20,000 nt of DNA from an uncultured virus (IMG/VR IMGVR_UViG_3300042992_002627) (IMGVR_UViG_3300042992_002627); one strand, 5' to 3'. Shown: positions 1 through 7,879, numbered from the stretch's first letter. A program made the numbers and translations. The notes: generated from the letters alone by a model not told the origin.

Positions 1-2
1 TT

Positions 3-239
3 TTAATTTTTGCAAAGCAAGGGATTCAAGGATTTACCACTGATGATGGTGATATTGTTGAACCTAAAACAAAAGAGGAAGTGCTAGAAGATATAGAATT
101 GATTGATGATTTGTTGTCAATTATGAAATCAAAAATGCTCTTAAATAAGAAAAAAGGGTTAAAAGCCGTAATAGATGGACGATTAGCGTTAGCAGTTGCC
201 CCCGATTCAGTTAGAATAGGTGGTACGAATCATTTTTAA
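3..239 (+). CDS. Partial hypothetical protein (5'-truncated by the window edge); gene of cassette-like unit A
   Basis: Hand-translated open frame LIFAKQGIQGFTTDDGDIVEPK...SVRIGGTNHF* ending at TAA 237-239, 10 nt before the AAC of the first site core (250-252). Not in the ORF track. Confidence 0.65.
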   Translation, partial: LIFAKQGIQGFTTDDGDIVEPKTKEEVLEDIELIDDLLSIMKSKMLLNKKKGLKAVIDGRLALAVAPDSVRIGGTNHF

Positions 240-243
240 AATG

Positions 244-280
244 TTTGCCAACGGTTCTCGGCTATATTTAGGCTGGGATT
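244..280. repeat. attC-like site 1, left arm only (degenerate or chimeric)
   Basis: TTTGCCAAC-GGTTCT-CGGCTATATTTAGGCTGGGATT follows a stop codon, as at sites 2 and 3. It is followed by the loop motif AACTTTAAATTAAAACAAAATG shared with site 3. No complementary right arm found. Confidence 0.55.
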
Positions 281-309
281 ATGAAAACGAAACTTTAAAT
301 TAAAACAAA

Positions 310-639
310 ATGAAAGTAGAAATTACAAAAATTATGCAAAGTACCGAAATACTAAACGAAATTAAAAATCAATTAGAACAATTAGAGCATAAAGGCTATG
401 ATAAAAATAGTTTTAAAAGCGGTTACCTTTTAGGATATGCCAAAGCGTTGCAATTGCAACAACCTGATGTTATAAAATCGGTTTGCGGTTCGTTGCCGAT
501 TTCAAAGGTGGTTTTCTTTGAGTTGAAAAAAGGGAAATACCTTGCAAGTAATGGGGTTGAAGTAACAACGGAATTTATACTAAAAAACGAACACGCTATA
601 TTTCACGATAATGGTTATGTGATTGTCGAAAGGCAATGA
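310..639 (+). CDS. Hypothetical protein, probably composite (cassette-like unit B)
   Basis: 109-aa ORF with an A-rich leader. It reads through a right-arm-like sequence (LQQPDVIKS, compare LPQTAVSKS in unit D), with GTT cores at 469 and 481 as in-frame Val codons. Confidence 0.6.
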   Translation: MKVEITKIMQSTEILNEIKNQLEQLEHKGYDKNSFKSGYLLGYAKALQLQQPDVIKSVCGSLPISKVVFFELKKGKYLASNGVEVTTEFILKNEHAIFHDNGYVIVERQ

Positions 640-771
640 CCGCTAACGTTGAGCATATACGAAGGCAGGGCTTTTAAATACCAAAGCTCGGTTACTTCCG
701 AAAGCTCAATAGAAATACAAAAGTTGAAAGTTTGCACGTCTGCCCTGCTTTTGTATATGCATTGTTGGCAG
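640..771. repeat. attC-like recombination hairpin (site 2)
   Basis: GCTAAC (642-647), GTTGA, then arm GCATATACGAAGGCAGGGC (653-671), 70-nt loop, arm GCCCTGCTTTTGTATATGC (742-760), ATT, GTTGGC (764-769). 17/19 Watson-Crick pairs plus 2 G.T pairs on the + strand. Confidence 0.8.
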
Positions 772-807
772 TAGTGCTTTTTATTTACAAACAAAAATTA
801 AACAAAT

Positions 808-1227
808 ATGAAAATAGTAAAAATATTATTAGACGATGGAACAAGTAGAGAAGTAGGAGAAATTAAACCTTTATCTCACTTTGAAGAAAAATACCCTGAA
901 AATAATAAATGGTATTGGCAAAGGTGTTACGAAAGACAATTCAATAATTTTGAAGATGATATTATTGAATTTCTAAATGAAAGTAATGTTGAAGAATACG
1001 CAAAAGACCACTTAAATTTAGTTGAAGAAGACGATGTGGAAGAAAAAGATATTTCTGATTTTACTGATGCTGAAATTTTAGAAGAAATGAAAGATAGAAA
1101 ATTAAATAAAGGAGGGAATATAATTACTTCTAGTTTTATTGAAAGATTTGAAAACATTGTAAAAGCAGAAAACATTATTTTATTAGACAATTTACTTTCT
1201 GAATTAGAAACTAAACTCAATCTTTAG
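808..1227 (+). CDS. Acidic hypothetical protein (cassette-like unit C)
   Basis: 139-aa, Glu/Asp-rich ORF with an A-rich leader, flanked by inverted repeats at 764-777 and 1239-1252. Confidence 0.75.
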   Translation: MKIVKILLDDGTSREVGEIKPLSHFEEKYPENNKWYWQRCYERQFNNFEDDIIEFLNESNVEEYAKDHLNLVEEDDVEEKDISDFTDAEILEEMKDRKLNKGGNIITSSFIERFENIVKAENIILLDNLLSELETKLNL

Positions 1228-1245
1228 CGACTCCAACGGCATTAC

Positions 1246-1382
1246 TGCCAACGTTCCGCAGCTTGTGGTCAGTTGCGGATTTAAGCACCGAGCCACAAAA
1301 AAATAAACAATAACTTTAAATTTAAAAACAATGAATAAAAATAATTCCAAAGACCCGCAATTGCCACAAACTGCTGTTAGCA
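1246..1382. repeat. attC-like recombination hairpin (site 3), overlapping the start of the YopX gene
   Basis: GCCAAC (1247-1252), GTTCC, then arm GCAGCTTGTGGTCAGTTGCGG (1258-1278), 76-nt loop, arm CCGCAATTGCCACAAACTGC (1355-1374), T, GTTAGC (1376-1381). One bulged T, one G.T and one C.A mismatch. Confidence 0.8.
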
Positions 1383-1771
1383 AATCGGCTTTAAAATTTG
1401 AATACGGATTTAATTCTGTGAATGGAATTGTAAAAAAGAGGTACTATTTAAGCGAAATACCGTTTATGCACGATAAATGCGATGTTTGGCAAATCTTACC
1501 AGTTGTTTATGTTAGGCAATTTACTGGATTTACAGACAAAAAAGAAGTTGAAATTTATCAAGGCGATATTTGTAAATACCATAAAAATACAAGTAAATGG
1601 TTAGTATCATATCATTTTGAAGTAAGGTTTAGAAATGGTGCTTTTTATGCTTATTGGGAACGTGAAATGATGGGAAAATTAGAGCAACATTGGGATTTAC
1701 TTTCTCAAAAAGATATGCGAAATATTAGAGTGGTTTCAGATATTTTTCAATCAGCGCAAACTACGTCATAA
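1331..1771 (+). CDS. YopX-family phage protein (cassette-like unit D)
   Basis: Motif RQFTGFTDKKEVEIYQGDI...FEVRFRNGAF...IRVVSDIFQ matches the YopX pattern (QxTGLxDKNGxEIYEGDI...EVIGNIYE). Confidence 0.8.
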   Translation: MNKNNSKDPQLPQTAVSKSALKFEYGFNSVNGIVKKRYYLSEIPFMHDKCDVWQILPVVYVRQFTGFTDKKEVEIYQGDICKYHKNTSKWLVSYHFEVRFRNGAFYAYWEREMMGKLEQHWDLLSQKDMRNIRVVSDIFQSAQTTS

Positions 1772-1836
1772 GCTGTTTGCTAACTACTATATGTAAAAAC
1801 CATTTATAAACCTTAACAAAATAAACACTACACGCC
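1770..1836. other. Candidate attI-like primary recombination site
   Basis: TTTGCTAAC core (AAC at 1782-1784) is not followed by a hairpin arm and lies 52 nt upstream of the integrase ATG. On the minus strand it reads ...TATAGTAG|TTAGCAAAC, pointing away from the integrase like attI. Confidence 0.55.
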
Positions 1837-2640
1837 ATGAACATCGGAAAGTACCTCGAAATGTATTCCGACGATTTAAAGTTAAAAAACTATTCGTCAA
1901 ACACAATTGAAAATTACAAATCACAAGTGGGATTATTTTTAAAACACTTTGATAAAGTAGCAACCAAGCCATCTGAGATATCAGAAAAACAAATAAAAGA
2001 ATGGTTGCTGATGGCCAACTCAATTAACGGCAGAAAACACAGAATATCTGCCGTGAAATTGTTTTACAAACTAACAGGAAAACAGCCTTTGAAGTTCCGT
2101 CACATTGAATATCCGCGGTCCGAAAAGAAGTTACCACAAATAATTGACAAAACCTATCTATTGGAATCAATCAATAAAATACAAAACAAAAAACACAAAG
2201 CCATCATTGCTTTGGCATACTCAACCGGAATGCGAGTTTCCGAAGTATGTAATTTGTTGATTGCCGATATCGACAGCAAACGAATGATTATTACCATCCG
2301 ACAATCAAAAGGGAAAAAAGACCGCATTGTGGCATTGTCATCAAAAATACTTGAAATACTTCGCGAGTACTTCAAAGAATACAAGCCAAAAACATTTTTA
2401 TTCAACGGTCAATTTGGTGATCAGTATTCACACACGAGCTGCAACCAAATAGTAAAACAATATTTAGGAAAAGAATTTCACTTTCATCAGCTCCGGCACT
2501 CAAATGCGACAGCACTTTTAGAAGCGGGAACCGATTTGCGAATCATACAAAAACACCTGGGCCACGCGTCTAGTAAAACAACAGAAATCTACACCCACGT
2601 CAGCACCAATTTATTACAATCAATGGCATTACCAATTTAA
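1837..2640 (+). CDS. Tyrosine recombinase, integron-integrase-like / XerD-like with N-terminal SAM-like domain
   Basis: N-terminal LKLKNYSSNTIENY. Catalytic motifs: YSTGMRVSEV (R), QSKGKKDR (K), HQLRHS (HxxR), LGH, TEIYTHV (Y). 267 aa. Confidence 0.93.
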   Translation: MNIGKYLEMYSDDLKLKNYSSNTIENYKSQVGLFLKHFDKVATKPSEISEKQIKEWLLMANSINGRKHRISAVKLFYKLTGKQPLKFRHIEYPRSEKKLPQIIDKTYLLESINKIQNKKHKAIIALAYSTGMRVSEVCNLLIADIDSKRMIITIRQSKGKKDRIVALSSKILEILREYFKEYKPKTFLFNGQFGDQYSHTSCNQIVKQYLGKEFHFHQLRHSNATALLEAGTDLRIIQKHLGHASSKTTEIYTHVSTNLLQSMALPI

Positions 2641-2650
2641 AAACTCAAAG

Positions 2651-2884
2651 ATGAAAATCTTCTTCACCTCCTTTTTTCAAATCGGCTTAGTAGCAATCAA
2701 TACCTACATGATCACGCAATTAATATGGCTCGGAATCTTTATAGTTTCATTTTTAATATCGCTATTGTGGTGTTTCAATGTGTCAAAAATATCCGTATCA
2801 ACCAGGGCAGCCAAATTAATCTACGCAACCGGTGCAGGAACCGGAGCTGTAACCGGACTTTTAATCTTAAAACTATTTATTTAA
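2651..2884 (+). CDS. Small membrane protein
   Basis: 77 aa with about three hydrophobic segments, starting 10 nt after the integrase stop. Confidence 0.7.
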   Translation: MKIFFTSFFQIGLVAINTYMITQLIWLGIFIVSFLISLLWCFNVSKISVSTRAAKLIYATGAGTGAVTGLLILKLFI

Positions 2885-2898
2885 CTAAAAATAAAGTC

Positions 2899-3021
2899 AT
2901 GCCAGAAACTGAAAAAGACAACTTGATCAAAAATCTTTACAAGTGTATCGAAGAACAAAAAGCGACAATAGAAATGCTTTACAAAGAAATAGATTTATTA
3001 AAAAAACCGACTAAAAAATGA
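2899..3021 (+). CDS. Small coiled-coil hypothetical protein (40 aa)
   Basis: MPETEKDNLIKNLYKCIEEQKATIEMLYKEIDLLKKPTKK. ATG 2899 follows an A-rich leader and is a better start than 2725, which would overlap the upstream gene. Confidence 0.5.
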   Translation: MPETEKDNLIKNLYKCIEEQKATIEMLYKEIDLLKKPTKK

Positions 3022-3072
3022 AACCATATTGTTGATGTCAACAAAAAGGTTTTTAACTAAAAAACAAAAACA

Positions 3073-3336
3073 ATGAACCCAAAACAATTTGCACAAACAT
3101 CCCACCGCATTGCTGTATTATCGGCATTGTTGGTTGAATCGTTGGAAGATATCAATGCATCATCCGCTGCAGCTTTAGATTTAAAGCAAAAAGCCAAAGA
3201 AATCATTCCGCATTGTGAAAGAATGCTCGAAGAAGTTTACACCGCCAAAAACATCACTTCCGGCACCTACTTTAACGAGCTTTCAAATAAAGTAGATACC
3301 GTAATCCGTAAAAATTTTGAAATAATAACGATGTAA
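3073..3336 (+). CDS. Hypothetical phage protein
   Basis: 87-aa ORF with an A-rich leader, tightly packed with the next gene. Confidence 0.7.
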   Translation: MNPKQFAQTSHRIAVLSALLVESLEDINASSAAALDLKQKAKEIIPHCERMLEEVYTAKNITSGTYFNELSNKVDTVIRKNFEIITM

Positions 3337-3338
3337 CC

Positions 3339-3731
3339 ATGAAAAAACACACCTTCGAAACCTATCAAAAAAAAATAATTGATTCAAACATCAAAAACCT
3401 TGAACACGAGCCAATTGTAAAACTTTGTTATGTTTTTTATTGTTTCATCACTGAAATTTATGAAAATTATATTGAAGATTGCGGAATCCCGTATTCTCCC
3501 AGCAGTGTAAATCGCGAATATTGCGAAAAGGTACTTAGTGTTTACCGAACATTATTTAATCGAATTCCTTCTTTAAACCAGGATCAATTGAACTGCTTTA
3601 TTCTTAGTATAAACGGTAATGATTTTAGTTATTACCAAGCACTTATGAATGTTAGATATAAAATTGAAGATGCTGAAAGATTTAAACCCGAAAACTTCGA
3701 CTTGTTTCACGATCAATTTAAAGCTTACTAA
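3339..3731 (+). CDS. Hypothetical phage protein
   Basis: 130-aa ORF starting 2 nt after the previous stop. Confidence 0.65.
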   Translation: MKKHTFETYQKKIIDSNIKNLEHEPIVKLCYVFYCFITEIYENYIEDCGIPYSPSSVNREYCEKVLSVYRTLFNRIPSLNQDQLNCFILSINGNDFSYYQALMNVRYKIEDAERFKPENFDLFHDQFKAY

Positions 3732-3732
3732 A

Positions 3733-3972
3733 ATGAGCCTTTTAAAACTACTTAACGAAGCAAAAAAACTCTACAGCGAAACCCGTGGAGCTGCATTTGT
3801 CATCACCGGTTCCAACTGTGGTGAATATTGGTTCTTAAAAATGCCTTCCATTGGTGAAACCTTTGAAAGTGTGCATTTAGAAACCGTATTGGAAGATTAT
3901 ATTGACCTGGTACTTAACAACCGTGTCAAAGTGGCGAAAAGAAAAAACACAACAAAAGAATTCCGACTATAA
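3733..3972 (+). CDS. Hypothetical phage protein
   Basis: Likely start is ATG 3733 (MSLLKLL...), 1 nt after the upstream stop. The ORF ends immediately before the terL ATG. Confidence 0.65.
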   Translation: MSLLKLLNEAKKLYSETRGAAFVITGSNCGEYWFLKMPSIGETFESVHLETVLEDYIDLVLNNRVKVAKRKNTTKEFRL

Positions 3973-5688
3973 ATGCAACCAGCCCAATCCCAACTCGAAT
4001 CAATCCCTTTTCAATATGCAGCCGCCGTTCGTTCCGGTGAAATTACTGTTGGAAAAAAAATAAAACTTGCTGTCGAGCGGTTTTATCAATGGATAGAAAC
4101 CGCTGAAGCCGATGGTTATCACCTCGATCATGCAACTGGCATGTTTGCAGTTACGTTCTTTGAAAACTTCCTGAACCATACCGAAGGAAAAATGGCGGGA
4201 AAACCGTTTGTGTTGGCACCATTTCAGCAATTTACCATTTACAACGTGTTCGGGTGGAAAGATGCCACCGGCAAACGCCGAATCAAAACCATTTACGACA
4301 AACGAGCCAAGAAAAACGGAAAAACGGCTGAAATGGCAGGTGTGGCATTATATTGCATGTCGTTTGATGAAGAAATCAAAGCTCAGGTGTTTATTGGGGC
4401 CACAAAAGAAGAACAGGCACGCCTTTGTTGGAATGCGGCCAAAGATTTCATTGATTCCTTTGTGGCAAACACTCGTTTAAAGCAATTGGGCTTTCGGACC
4501 ATGCAAAACAAGGTGATTTTCGAACCTACCAACAGTTTTCTTCGTCCGTTGGGTGGCGATAGTAAAACCCAGGATGGAATTAACAGCCATTTATCGATAA
4601 TTGATGAATATCACGCTCATGCAACCGATGGCGTGAAAGAAAACCTTGAATCATCAGCAGTTCAACGCTTGCAACCTTTAACTTGGCACATCACAACAGC
4701 CGGAACTAACATTGCATCGGTGTGTAAAAATTATGAAGATTCGGTTATTGAAGTGTTGGAAGGCCGAAAAAAAGACGACCGCCTTTGGATTATGATCCAT
4801 GATTTAGATGAAGATGACGATTGGAACGATGAAAGTAAATGGATAAAAGCCAATCCATTATTAAACCAAGGACTTTCAATCGACAATATTCGCGATGAAT
4901 ACCTTAAATGTGTCAATCAACCTTCTAAAATTCCGAATTTCAAAACCAAACATCTAAACATGTGGGTCGATGCTCCAAAAATTTGGATTCCAACCGAAAT
5001 ATGGCAAAAAAATAAAATTTCCGAAATACCGTTATCTAAGTTCCAAAAACATGGAAGCTATGCAGCTCTCGATTTGTCAACCACTACAGATTTAACAGCA
5101 TTTGCTATACTTTCCGAACCCGATGAACACGAAAAGCGATATTTAAAAGTATTACTGTTTTGTCCTGAAAAAACAATCGAAAGACGAAGCAAAGAAGACC
5201 GTGTTCCTTACAAATATTGGGCAGATGCAGGTTTTATCATTGCAACACCCGGTGATGTTGTAGATCATGCCGTTGTAGAAGATAGAATTCGCATTGAATA
5301 CCACAAACATGCAGTAAAACGCATCGAAATAGATCGCTATTTGGCAACAAATATCACATCAAATTTACAAGAAGAAGGTTTTGAAGTGGCCTATTTTACA
5401 CAAACAATTACAAATTATTCGTTTCCAACCAAAGAATTTGAACGCCTTGTTTACTTAAATAAAATAATTCACGACGGTAATCCCGTTTTAGAATGGATGC
5501 TTTCCGGGTGTGTGGTGATTTCCGACACAAACGAAAACATCCGAATATCAAAATCACGTTCACACGCAGGAGGTAAGAGAATCGATGGAATAATAGCTTC
5601 AATCATGGCATTAGGCGGTTCGTTATCACCAAAAGAAGAAAAATCAAAATACGAAAAACCAATGGATGAATCCGAAATCTATATATAA
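3973..5688 (+). CDS. terL: Terminase large subunit (Terminase_1-like)
   Basis: Adenine-binding LAPFQQF, Walker A AKKNGKT, Walker B SIIDEYH, coupling motif ITTAG, RNase H-like ALDLS, and C-terminal RIDGIIA. Confidence 0.96.
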   Translation: MQPAQSQLESIPFQYAAAVRSGEITVGKKIKLAVERFYQWIETAEADGYHLDHATGMFAVTFFENFLNHTEGKMAGKPFVLAPFQQFTIYNVFGWKDATGKRRIKTIYDKRAKKNGKTAEMAGVALYCMSFDEEIKAQVFIGATKEEQARLCWNAAKDFIDSFVANTRLKQLGFRTMQNKVIFEPTNSFLRPLGGDSKTQDGINSHLSIIDEYHAHATDGVKENLESSAVQRLQPLTWHITTAGTNIASVCKNYEDSVIEVLEGRKKDDRLWIMIHDLDEDDDWNDESKWIKANPLLNQGLSIDNIRDEYLKCVNQPSKIPNFKTKHLNMWVDAPKIWIPTEIWQKNKISEIPLSKFQKHGSYAALDLSTTTDLTAFAILSEPDEHEKRYLKVLLFCPEKTIERRSKEDRVPYKYWADAGFIIATPGDVVDHAVVEDRIRIEYHKHAVKRIEIDRYLATNITSNLQEEGFEVAYFTQTITNYSFPTKEFERLVYLNKIIHDGNPVLEWMLSGCVVISDTNENIRISKSRSHAGGKRIDGIIASIMALGGSLSPKEEKSKYEKPMDESEIYI

Positions 5689-6652: not shown

Positions 6653-7879
6653 ATGGGCATTTTTAAAAATATCTTTGCACTGCCTGAAATCCGTAATACT
6701 GTAGCCACTTTAAAAGTGCCTTATACAAGTTCATTCGGATTGTTTGGTGGCATGGCTACCGAAGCTACTTTGGCAAACAGCAAATCAGCTTTTACAATAT
6801 CAGCATTTTACAATGCAGTAGATCAGATTTCAAACGATATTGCAAAACTCCCCAAACACATCTACAAAAAAGAAGGTAAAAACCGTTTTGTCAACACAAA
6901 TCACCCGGCAAATTACCTTATTTCTTCGGCTCCAAACGATCTGATGACTTCCTTCGATTTTTGGAAAATCATTACTATTTCTACTATTATAAAAGGAAAC
7001 GGATATGCCGAAATCATTCGTAACGAAGTAACCGGAATTGAAGAAGCGTTTATTTTTAGAGATTCCGATGATGTAAAAGTATATGCAGGCGAAAACTTTA
7101 TGTTTTACAAATACAAAGGTAGCACAATCGAATCGTCAAACATGTTGCATTTTAAAGGACTTTCCTTTGATGGTGTTGTGGGTGTTGGAATCATAACCTT
7201 TGCGGCCCAGCAATTAGGCATCATGCTCGATGGCAAAAAATACCAGGGCGACATTTATAAAGATCGTGGTTTGGGTTATGGTGTTATAGAAACAGATTTG
7301 GCGGTTGCGGCACCTAATAAAAAAATGATTGAAGATGGTTTTACTAAAAAACTAGCGGCTGGCAATAAATTTAATGTACCTATGTTAGATGAAGGATTTA
7401 AGTATAAATCTATTTCTGTAACACCGCAGGAAGCCGAATTTTTAGCATCCGATAAAAATGCAGTGGTCGAAGTATGTCGTTGGTTAAACATAGCACCACA
7501 CAAATTAAAACACCTGGATAATGCAACTTTCAGCAACATCCAACACCAATCAATCGAACATGTTCAGGATTCTTTGTTGCCGTGGATCACTCGCGATGAA
7601 CAGGAATTAAACCGCAAATTATTTACGGTTGTGCAGCGTGAAACCTTATACACAAAATTTAACGAAAAATTTCTTTTACGTGGCGACCTCGAAGCACGTA
7701 AAAACTTTTATACAGCCGGAATCTATTCAGGCTTTTTAACACGTAACGAAGTGCGAAGCCTGGAAGATATGGATCCTATTGATGGATTAGATGAACCATT
7801 ACAACCAGTTAATATGCAAACACTCGAAATGGTCGAAAACCTAACAAAACAAAGTGCAAATGAAAACAGTAGTAACTAA
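6653..7879 (+). CDS. Portal protein, HK97 family
   Basis: AVDQISNDIAKLP, GNGYAEI, MLHFKGLSFDGVVG, NIAPHKL, TFSNIQHQ, LTRNEVRSLEDMDPIDGLD. 408 aa. Confidence 0.96.
   Translation: MGIFKNIFALPEIRNTVATLKVPYTSSFGLFGGMATEATLANSKSAFTISAFYNAVDQISNDIAKLPKHIYKKEGKNRFVNTNHPANYLISSAPNDLMTSFDFWKIITISTIIKGNGYAEIIRNEVTGIEEAFIFRDSDDVKVYAGENFMFYKYKGSTIESSNMLHFKGLSFDGVVGVGIITFAAQQLGIMLDGKKYQGDIYKDRGLGYGVIETDLAVAAPNKKMIEDGFTKKLAAGNKFNVPMLDEGFKYKSISVTPQEAEFLASDKNAVVEVCRWLNIAPHKLKHLDNATFSNIQHQSIEHVQDSLLPWITRDEQELNRKLFTVVQRETLYTKFNEKFLLRGDLEARKNFYTAGIYSGFLTRNEVRSLEDMDPIDGLDEPLQPVNMQTLEMVENLTKQSANENSSN

Follow-up and report, generated by a model that had tools for sequence, protein, structure and literature searches.

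A probable phage-borne, integron-like cassette platform with reversed gene polarity beside a Xer-like recombinase gene

We analysed a 20,000-nucleotide stretch of DNA from an uncultured virus (IMG/VR IMGVR_UViG_3300042992_002627), referred to here at its full length as the window, in which a tyrosine recombinase gene, int, lies directly downstream of a row of small open reading frames (ORFs). We propose, with a probability of about 0.7 and from sequence comparison, that positions 246-2640 form the int-proximal end of a phage-borne integron-like cassette platform in which gene polarity is reversed. A cassette would run from just past one ...YNAAC core to the next core and would consist, on the + strand, of an attC-like hairpin (AAC-G...T-GTTA, ~120-140 nucleotides (nt)), an A-rich leader, a small gene, its stop codon and the next core. 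Read along the minus strand, int, an attI-like GTTAGCA (divided after its G) and attC-like sites follow one another as in a canonical integron, and only the genes are reversed.

The evidence begins at the junction next to int. Relatives of int were collected from viral contigs, where 229 were confirmed and 80 loci kept, and the junction set consists of the window plus the 50 loci in which the match starts from residue 1 and upstream DNA is present (in the other 30 of the 80, the start codon could not be placed or there was no upstream DNA). In all 51 sequences, an AAC is found 50-53 nt before the int ATG. Among the 45 sequences that are not identical to one another, mean pairwise identity is 60% at +1 to +45 from this AAC and 32% at -50 to -8, and within the upstream side the AAC and a T at -11 are invariant and a T at -4 is 87% conserved. 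Four contigs start exactly at TAAC. In blastn comparisons, the match between the window and 70 loci runs only from 1778 or 1781 to ~2640, with extra weak similarity in a terminase or portal gene in 5 of the 70, and nothing is conserved past the int stop codon among the compared loci. Because conservation is confined to 1778/1781-2640, the 52-nt site preceding int and int itself travel as one unit, and upstream DNA is exchanged exactly at the core beside int. An earlier note on this DNA had predicted that conservation would start sharply at the AAC at 1782-1784, and had named conservation extending well above 1782 as the outcome that would speak against it; in the int-upstream alignment, conservation begins at the TAAC at 1781-1784 and stops at 1781.

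The last core of the array, TGCTAAC at 1778-1784 (part of TTTGCTAAC at 1776-1784), adjoins the int leader, and the 52 nt between it and the int ATG at 1837 are predicted to be unfolded, with a DNA minimum free energy of -1.8 kcal/mol (+) and -1.4 kcal/mol (-) and z-scores of +0.37 (+ strand) and +1.16 (- strand). This agrees with the earlier note, in which the last core had no hairpin after it and abutted the leader. The best-conserved columns of the leader at 1785-1836 are +4 to +11 (TATATGTA). On the minus strand the last core reads GTTAGCA and points away from int, yet the ORFs are co-directional with int, and the ORF list bears this earlier observation out. When a dif-type site, with inverted 11-bp arms about a centre of 6-8 bp, was looked for, an imperfect inverted pair was seen around 1784, by eye only (TGTTTGCTAAC, 8 nt, GTAAAAACCA).

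The core is repeated through the array. All four ORFs upstream of int are on the + strand, as int is (Table 1), and a GYYAAC core follows the stop codon within at most 25 nt in 4 of 4 array ORFs versus 1 of the 25 other ORFs in the window; the loose motif TKYYAAC is not enriched in the window (57 matches versus 42.8 expected, with 5 of 200 shuffles reaching 57). At site 2, arms at 653-671 and 742-760 are 89% complementary, the core AAC at 645-647 pairs with GTT at 764-766, and the inverse core is GTTGGCA at 764-770. Folding of this site gives -16.8 kcal/mol for the + strand versus -14.4 kcal/mol for the minus strand (z -1.71). Site 3 (1246-1382) is an imperfect long inverted repeat reaching from the core at 1246-1252 to the inverse core GTTAGCA at 1376-1382, where the ATG (1331) of the YopX ORF falls in the loop and the 3' arm lies within the ORF. 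As the earlier note had read them, the mismatches at site 2 are both G.T on the + strand, which we see again when the two arms are read directly; the note called site 3 mixed. Sites 2 and 3, and the hairpins of the relatives described below, have the features of attC-type sites, namely an imperfect palindrome, RYYYAAC/GTTRRRY cores and folding.

Folding statistics from a single sequence are modest, as the z of site 2 indicates, and it is the comparison with relatives that carries the weight. At 77.7% identity, positions 1270-1396 match an intergenic element of the Flavobacterium phages mumin and filifjonk. No cassette of the window is shared at the DNA level with the 59 compared upstream regions, in which only 1763-1836 matches, and mobility is therefore shown with other cassettes. 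The array may extend beyond the window start.

Intergenic regions of the arrays in relatives start with ...YTAAC-G shortly past, or overlapping, the stop codon and end with T-GTTA(G/T), and between these ends are a stem, a loop and an A-rich leader, with the start codon after the element or in its loop. Internal sites are imperfect hairpins, TAACG...TGTTA, of ~120-140 nt. In a constrained-fold scan of 36 loci, strict TAAC...GTTA hairpins numbered 68 in 127.8 kb upstream of int versus 6 in 132.6 kb downstream. The + strand is the more stable one in 80 versus 12 upstream candidates, which were picked on either strand (p ~2e-13), and in 18 versus 15 in the downstream control; of the 41 candidates whose core comes no more than 25 nt behind an ORF stop, 39 fold better on the + strand and 2 on the other. 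The preference for the + strand claimed in the earlier note thus generalises, although folding as DNA and folding as mRNA are inseparable in these counts. Compensatory changes affect 14 of the 27 predicted pairs in one small hairpin family and 9 of 23 in another, and neither family varies in the G.T pair beside the core (TAAC-G opposite T-GTTA). Within one family, cassettes differ in the frame in which the 3' arm is read, so that the arm is conserved as nucleotides, not as protein.

Cassettes were also found to change position. In an all-versus-all blastn of the upstream regions, blocks that are adjacent to int in one genome sit 1-2 kb further upstream in others, and in all three pairs of moved blocks (Table 1) the homology ends right after ...YNAAC, and what comes next is either the attI-like TACTATATGTA or the beginning of the next hairpin. 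We inspected 16 block borders, and 8 of them are at an AAC core; the clean right-hand ends are there in 4 of 4 cases, and so are 4 left-hand ends.

The same can be seen in phages that have been cultured. Freya_1 to Freya_10, phages of Polaribacter (Bartlau et al., PMC8776804), have genomes of 44.0-48.9 kb and an int that is 33.7% identical, and we compared three of them, Freya_1, Freya_6 and Freya_10. Freya_10 is Freya_1 plus 4.9 kb with 12 annotated small genes. The added block begins behind ...TACAAC, and its last letters, ...GCTAAC, directly precede the conserved int leader; the flanks are 100% and 99.8% identical to Freya_1. Freya_6 and Freya_10 have a cassette in common and part from each other right after ...CCAAC. 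In its available text, the report on these phages (PMC8776804) leaves the array differences undiscussed. The claim of the earlier note that new cassettes enter next to int fits the three genome pairs and the Freya phages, but deletion would look the same. It is by comparison that the site before int can be called attI-like, from the break at AAC in 51 of 51 sequences, the moved blocks and the Freya phages, which are read here without separating insertion from deletion.

The window was found in lake-water metagenomes, and contigs from four runs were compared with window positions 1-4000; being contigs and not reads, they show which forms exist and not their frequency. In runs X14 and X17, contigs with a ~99% identical int are joined at 1779 to unlike DNA (1485 and ~1800 nt), in X20 the match begins at 1774 after only 19 unlike letters, and X3 continues as the window. 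All four runs have a contig piece over 435-648 whose match stops at 648, and in X17 and X20 the contig continues into unlike DNA. Contig joints of 786 to 1239 and ~1392 to 1755 were considered as deletions and rejected, as their short sides are 19-28 letters, and we take them as the conserved ends of other cassettes. As a separate observation, positions 322-464 inside the ORF at 310-639 have a contig depth 4-8 times that of the surroundings in 4 of 4 lake runs, and contigs over this ORF start or stop at 322-340, 435 and 464. From the raised depth, part of the cassette 1 gene is common to many other lake sequences.

Table 1. Features of the proposed platform in the window, and blocks seen both next to int and at internal positions in relatives (negative positions are upstream of int)
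Feature	Position	Strand	Remarks
ORF end before the first core, open at the window start	3-239	+	no Pfam or PHROG match
Core 1, TGCCAAC	246-252	+	7 nt past the stop; proposed right end of the preceding cassette
Cassette 1 (proposed)	253-647	+	weak 7-bp hairpin 256-278 (site 1); ORF 310-639 (109 amino acids (aa), no family); core CGCTAAC 641-647
Cassette 2 (proposed)	648-1252	+	long hairpin (site 2); ORF 808-1227 (139 aa, no family); core TGCCAAC 1246-1252
Cassette 3 (proposed)	1253-1784	+	imperfect hairpin (site 3); ORF 1331-1771 (146 aa, YopX domain); core TGCTAAC 1778-1784
attI-like docking site and int leader	1785-1836	+	52 nt, no hairpin; kept with int in all relatives
Tyrosine recombinase gene (int)	1837-2640	+	267 aa, Xer/XerA-like, without the IntI-specific insert
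Moved block, next to int in L032 and internal in L004	-1079..-53 (L032); -2999..-1973 (L004)		92.9% identical over 1027 nt
Moved block, next to int in L028 and internal in L024	-886..-52 (L028); -2858..-2024 (L024)		95.3% identical over 835 nt
Moved block, next to int in L036 and internal in L024	-262..-52 (L036); -1372..-1153 (L024)		82.7% identical

In the mechanism that we propose, the + strand, which is the sense strand of the genes and of int, would fold, and the folded 5' TAAC and 3' GTTA would form a duplex recombinase-binding box. The recombinase would cut at or next to AAC, the strand would be exchanged with the attI-like site or with another hairpin, and replication would resolve the intermediate, so that cassettes would be inserted, deleted or reshuffled beside int. 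Transcription would presumably start from upstream phage promoters or from promoters inside cassettes, not from Pc. The fixed exchange site, the repeated hairpins with the same core, the borders at cores and the + strand folding asymmetry are the parts of this scheme seen in the sequences, and the steps from Int binding to resolution by replication are what we infer. IntI acts on the bottom strands of attC and XerCD on CTX phage DNA, and the proposed mechanism mirrors both.

Int has an N-terminal SAM-like domain and a catalytic domain, with R133, K161, H217, R220, H243 and Y252 as candidate catalytic residues by alignment. The family models that fit it best are Xer models, each of which it scores below the cut-off (XerA_Arch, 184.4 bits with a cut-off of 220; XerC, 162.4 with 335; XerD, 157.6 with 330), and its best solved relatives are the XerA-type proteins 4a8e and 5hxy; it is thus Xer-like in fold and length but no called Xer. 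The integron integrase models also give scores below their cut-offs (TIGR02249 integrase_gron, 134 bits in two stretches with a cut-off of 265; PRK15417, 83 with 435). When int is aligned with VchIntIA (2a3v), residues 12-180 match 11-182 and residues 212-257 match 262-307, leaving ~48 IntI residues unmatched, which we take to be the IntI additional domain. By these scores and this alignment, int is not an IntI-type integrase with the additional domain. The variable cassette ends beside int carry the invariant T at -11 (window position 1774; 44 relatives) and mostly a T at -4, and the resulting T-N6-TAAC spacing is the length of a Xer-type binding arm.

Several observations weigh against the proposed cassette platform. 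The hairpin at site 1 (256-278) is no better than shuffles and is unconvincing, and the two strands of site 3 are nearly equal, at -15.3 kcal/mol (+) versus -16.5 kcal/mol (-), which slightly favours the minus strand. The general + strand bias could reflect mRNA folding, from which DNA folding is indistinguishable, and hairpins of the same class occur in the integrase-less phages mumin and P12002L. The other 8 of the 16 inspected borders are not at AAC: 3 are at or just after a start codon, past a shared hairpin and leader, 1 is near a 3' core, 3 are inside ORFs and 1 is ambiguous. One lake contig matches 1375-1785 only, with its border at the 3' core of site 3, and contig ends and borders in assemblies can also come from repeats. 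The IntI-specific insert is needed to recognise folded attC, and int is without it. In the earlier note, a cassette was a hairpin and its downstream gene, running from AAC to AAC; the borders at AAC are borne out by the moved blocks, the Freya phages and the contigs broken at 648 and 1779, but hairpin and downstream gene are not an indivisible unit, because of the 3 borders at a start codon and the 1 near a 3' core.

Three other explanations were weighed, of which the first, which we consider unlikely, is repeat-mediated shuffling. Hairpin and leader would then be regulatory modules at the starts of genes, such as signals for termination, promotion or translation, homologous recombination would drive the mosaicism and int would be a bystander, on the model of the promoter-stem-loop (PeSL) cassettes of T4-type phages with their repetition-driven mosaicism. 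Such shuffling would fit the pairs of loci (L047/L051, L009/L023, L022/L032) in which the same hairpin and leader stand before different genes and the homology ends at the ATG, and it would also fit the hairpins of integrase-less phages, the identity of the favoured strand with the mRNA strand and the one border near a 3' core. It does not account well for the int junction, where the partners share only TAAC and a few bases, too little for homologous recombination, and where all 51 sequences break exactly, at a constant 50-53 nt from int. Right-hand block ends lie exactly after AAC and not anywhere in the 140-nt repeat, and int with its 52-nt site enters unrelated phage backbones as one unit.

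The second explanation, which has a distinctly poor chance of being right, is a plain phage attachment site, where int would be a lysogeny integrase, TAAC 1781-1784 the attP core, the upstream DNA a 'moron' region and the hairpins terminators or regulatory elements. Conservation stopping at the core is what one expects when integrated and free att forms are compared, annotation places int in the phage integrase family, the ends of several contigs lie near int, and some relatives are in provirus records of isolate genomes (L046, L051, L077, L078). Both sides of the junction, however, are phage DNA in every locus with enough flank, the upstream side having small co-directional ORFs and the downstream side structural or replication genes; the same core follows each upstream gene, the hairpins are 11-fold enriched, and blocks whose ends are at AAC move between int-adjacent and internal positions. 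There is no tRNA or tmRNA in the whole window, so a tRNA-type att site is unsupported, and no Rfam match was found in window positions 1-4000 at E <= 0.1. Among the best 80 of 541 relatives in a genome collection, only 2 clearly belong to the int subfamily, both metagenome-assembled (a third candidate, L091, is a partial match at 65%); matches at 40-46% identity there are longer proteins without the TAAC leader and were set aside as another family.

One carrier bears on the lysogeny reading. A 119.8-kb contig of a Flavobacterium metagenome-assembled genome (MAG; L168 and L169, G002:C8:46000-65000 and 100000-119844) has an 84%-identical int and ends 191 nt upstream of it. Genes for a crAss-type muzzle-domain protein and for a polyvalent protein of 2259 aa are 6-19 kb away from the int module, and those for two ordinary integrases of 431-445 aa, beside host-like genes, are 58-70 kb away; a resolvase is also present with these large integrases, next to host-like peptidase genes. 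Because this carrier has separate large integrases beside host-like genes, the small int is suggested not to be the lysogeny integrase.

The third explanation, a canonical polarity in which attC would follow its gene, the crossover would be at the 3' GTT (after its G, at 764 and 1376), the minus strand would be the substrate and attI would be at the far end, is very improbable. The gene-sense strand does read RYYYAAC...GTTRRRY as in canonical cassettes, two borders are at or near a 3' core and the P12002L_attC1 forward oligo is given on the gene-sense strand in the available text of PMC9892861, but eight borders and all Freya junctions are at the 5' AAC, the + strand folds better (80 versus 12), and a crossover at the 3' GTT cannot give the last junction, because there the last cassette ends with a 5' core only and no hairpin. 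The earlier note had named this crossover as a finding that would overturn it, and at the int junction it is excluded, as no hairpin is there.

Returning to the phage-borne cassette platform, we looked at its carriers and cargo. The window is part of a tailed phage of the freshwater Flavobacterium type, and its morphogenesis genes, all on the + strand, include a large terminase (3973-5688), a portal (6653-7879), a prohead protease and an HK97-type capsid. In relatives, the int module is inside phages with HK97-type, lambda-type and P22-type portals, and other carriers have an S49 protease with an E-type capsid, or replication genes or an RNA ligase directly downstream. Some carriers are large contigs of up to 362 kb, which are candidate giant phages or host DNA.

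As cargo we took, by a heuristic, 144 ORFs from 33 loci, all lying downstream of the first hairpin detected and upstream of int, and 17 of the 144 have Pfam matches. These are five N6/N4 DNA methylases, one C5 methylase, Mom, two PAPS-reductase-like proteins, an Acb2/Tad1 hairpin-domain protein, two YopX, PcfK, PcfJ, two domains of unknown function (DUFs) and an EF-Tu-like N-terminal fragment. By these family matches, the recognisable cargo in relatives is rich in DNA-modification and counter-defence genes. The Acb2/Tad1 hairpin domain (E 2.8e-7) is in an int-adjacent cassette ORF (L015:3605-3898), and this family includes phage proteins that sponge up defence signalling nucleotides. The EF-Tu-like GTP-binding N-terminus (L023:3192-3515; Pfam GTP_EFTU, residues 12-46) is in an ORF that directly follows the hairpin and leader common to an unrelated cassette of L009, and it looks like a captured host gene fragment.

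Three further observations concern hairpins and borders elsewhere. Unrelated hairpin loops in four loci (L005, L009, L028, L046) share the words AAGTACAAA and TTTAAATTAA shortly before the start codon, and these words may be a common leader or promoter signal. A hairpin of the family at L046:718-850 is found on the minus strand of a bacterial chromosome contig, that of Flavobacterium saccharophilum DSM 1811 (L116:7471-7608), where a larger integrase, 44% identical, lies ~0.7-1.6 kb away, and such sites are therefore not confined to phages. Downstream of int, after a small ORF at 2899-3021, there is a palindrome, TTGTTGA-TG-TCAACAA at 3029-3044, made of two inverted core-like words, GTTGA and TCAAC. 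Lake-run contigs break at 3026, 3042 and 3071-3073, with unlike DNA on either side in some runs, and X17 has a 75-nt contig over 2997-3071 at ~3 times the depth of its neighbours; 2997-3071 may mark another module border, downstream of int. The palindrome was rejected as a second conserved site, since it occurs in only 2 of the 80 viral loci searched and elsewhere in those loci.

The balance tips slightly towards a wider claim, that Bacteroidota phages of diverse kinds run a gene-capture system of their own, with an insert-less Xer enzyme acting on folded sense-strand hairpins, an attI-like site and reversed genes, and that such carriers include siphoviruses, crAss-like phages and, possibly, giant phages. 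If this is true, then single-strand recombination of the integron type arose, or has survived, outside the lineage of IntI, and the system would be a main route for trading counter-defence genes (orphan methylases, Mom, Acb2/Tad1-like sponges) among these phages, pointing to a dedicated mechanism for the exchange of such genes between phages. It would also account for the 'orphan' attC clusters that have been reported from flavobacterial phages without an integrase. Isolates of the Freya phages on Polaribacter already differ in their arrays and hence offer a culturable system.

For the comparison with integrons we use their generally known features, attI, attC, Pc and IntI. As in integrons, a tyrosine recombinase gene lies beside a fixed docking site and a row of one-gene cassettes, the sites are ~120-140-nt imperfect palindromes with ...YAAC and GTTR... 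cores, and borders are at the core. Site families common to several cassettes recall especially the sedentary chromosomal integrons with their homogeneous attC families, int-adjacent blocks are displaced by further blocks, most of the cargo is of unknown function, and int, attI and attC keep their polarity relative to one another. Unlike in integrons, the recombinase is a phage int without the IntI insert and below the IntI model cut-off, the carrier is a phage, and the better-folding strand is the gene-sense strand. The attC-like site here precedes its gene and the genes face int, in the window and for nearly all ORFs upstream in 21 relatives, so that no Pc arrangement is possible with ORFs pointing away from int; the earlier note was right to call this the reverse of canonical integrons. 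Integrons, regarded as bacterial devices, take their definition from IntI, and the extra domain of IntI is held to allow the use of folded attC, whereas here the same site logic would be tied to a shorter Xer-like enzyme in phages, with the cassette genes reversed. Should the enzyme catalyse such an exchange, one could test directly how far the integron mechanism depends on the IntI insert.

XerCD acting with CTX phage is a precedent for the proposed single-strand chemistry. In that system, a Xer enzyme without the IntI insert exchanges one strand pair on a folded single-stranded DNA site and leaves completion to replication. The difference is that in the CTX case the whole phage enters the host dif by means of host enzymes, with no cassette array and no phage recombinase.

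We found no published case of a phage-borne array that has both a non-IntI recombinase of its own and an attI-like site, in a search that reached only a minority of subscription journals; as far as the available parts of the reports go, the closest published cases are the integrase-less attC clusters (CALINs) in phages and the rAID-1 arrays. The phage CALINs were treated as kin of bacterial integrons and tested with IntI1 (Qi et al. 2023, Front Microbiol, PMC9892861), and in the available text P12002L_attC1 is the only one of six sites without a verified IntI1 junction. This site has the same hairpin class as ours, on the gene-sense strand and between two methyltransferase genes, and DNA methyltransferases are also among the cargo there (PMC9892861). 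In P12002L (our locus L087), attC1 at ~29,160-29,243 (+) is of the present class, and attC2 at ~30,017-30,075 (-), between convergent gene ends, is unlike it. A CALIN has at least two attC and no integrase nearby, and unlike those described in PMC9892861 the present sites lie beside their own non-IntI recombinase, whose gene is 52 nt from the last core, and beside an attI-like site.

The rAID-1 arrays of gut Bacteroidales combine a XerD-like recombinase with co-directional immunity genes (Ross et al., preprint 10.1101/471110). To count as one, an array needs a recombinase with at least 44% identity to the B. fragilis rAID-1 recombinase. From the available part of that preprint, they resemble the present system in their Bacteroidota hosts, in the pairing of a Xer-type recombinase with a co-directional array of small genes and in repetitive intergenic sequences reminiscent of integrons. 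They differ in being chromosomal, with genes for immunity to interbacterial toxins, and in having at least two co-directional genes downstream of a 5' recombinase (10.1101/471110), whereas the present array is phage-borne and lies upstream of int.

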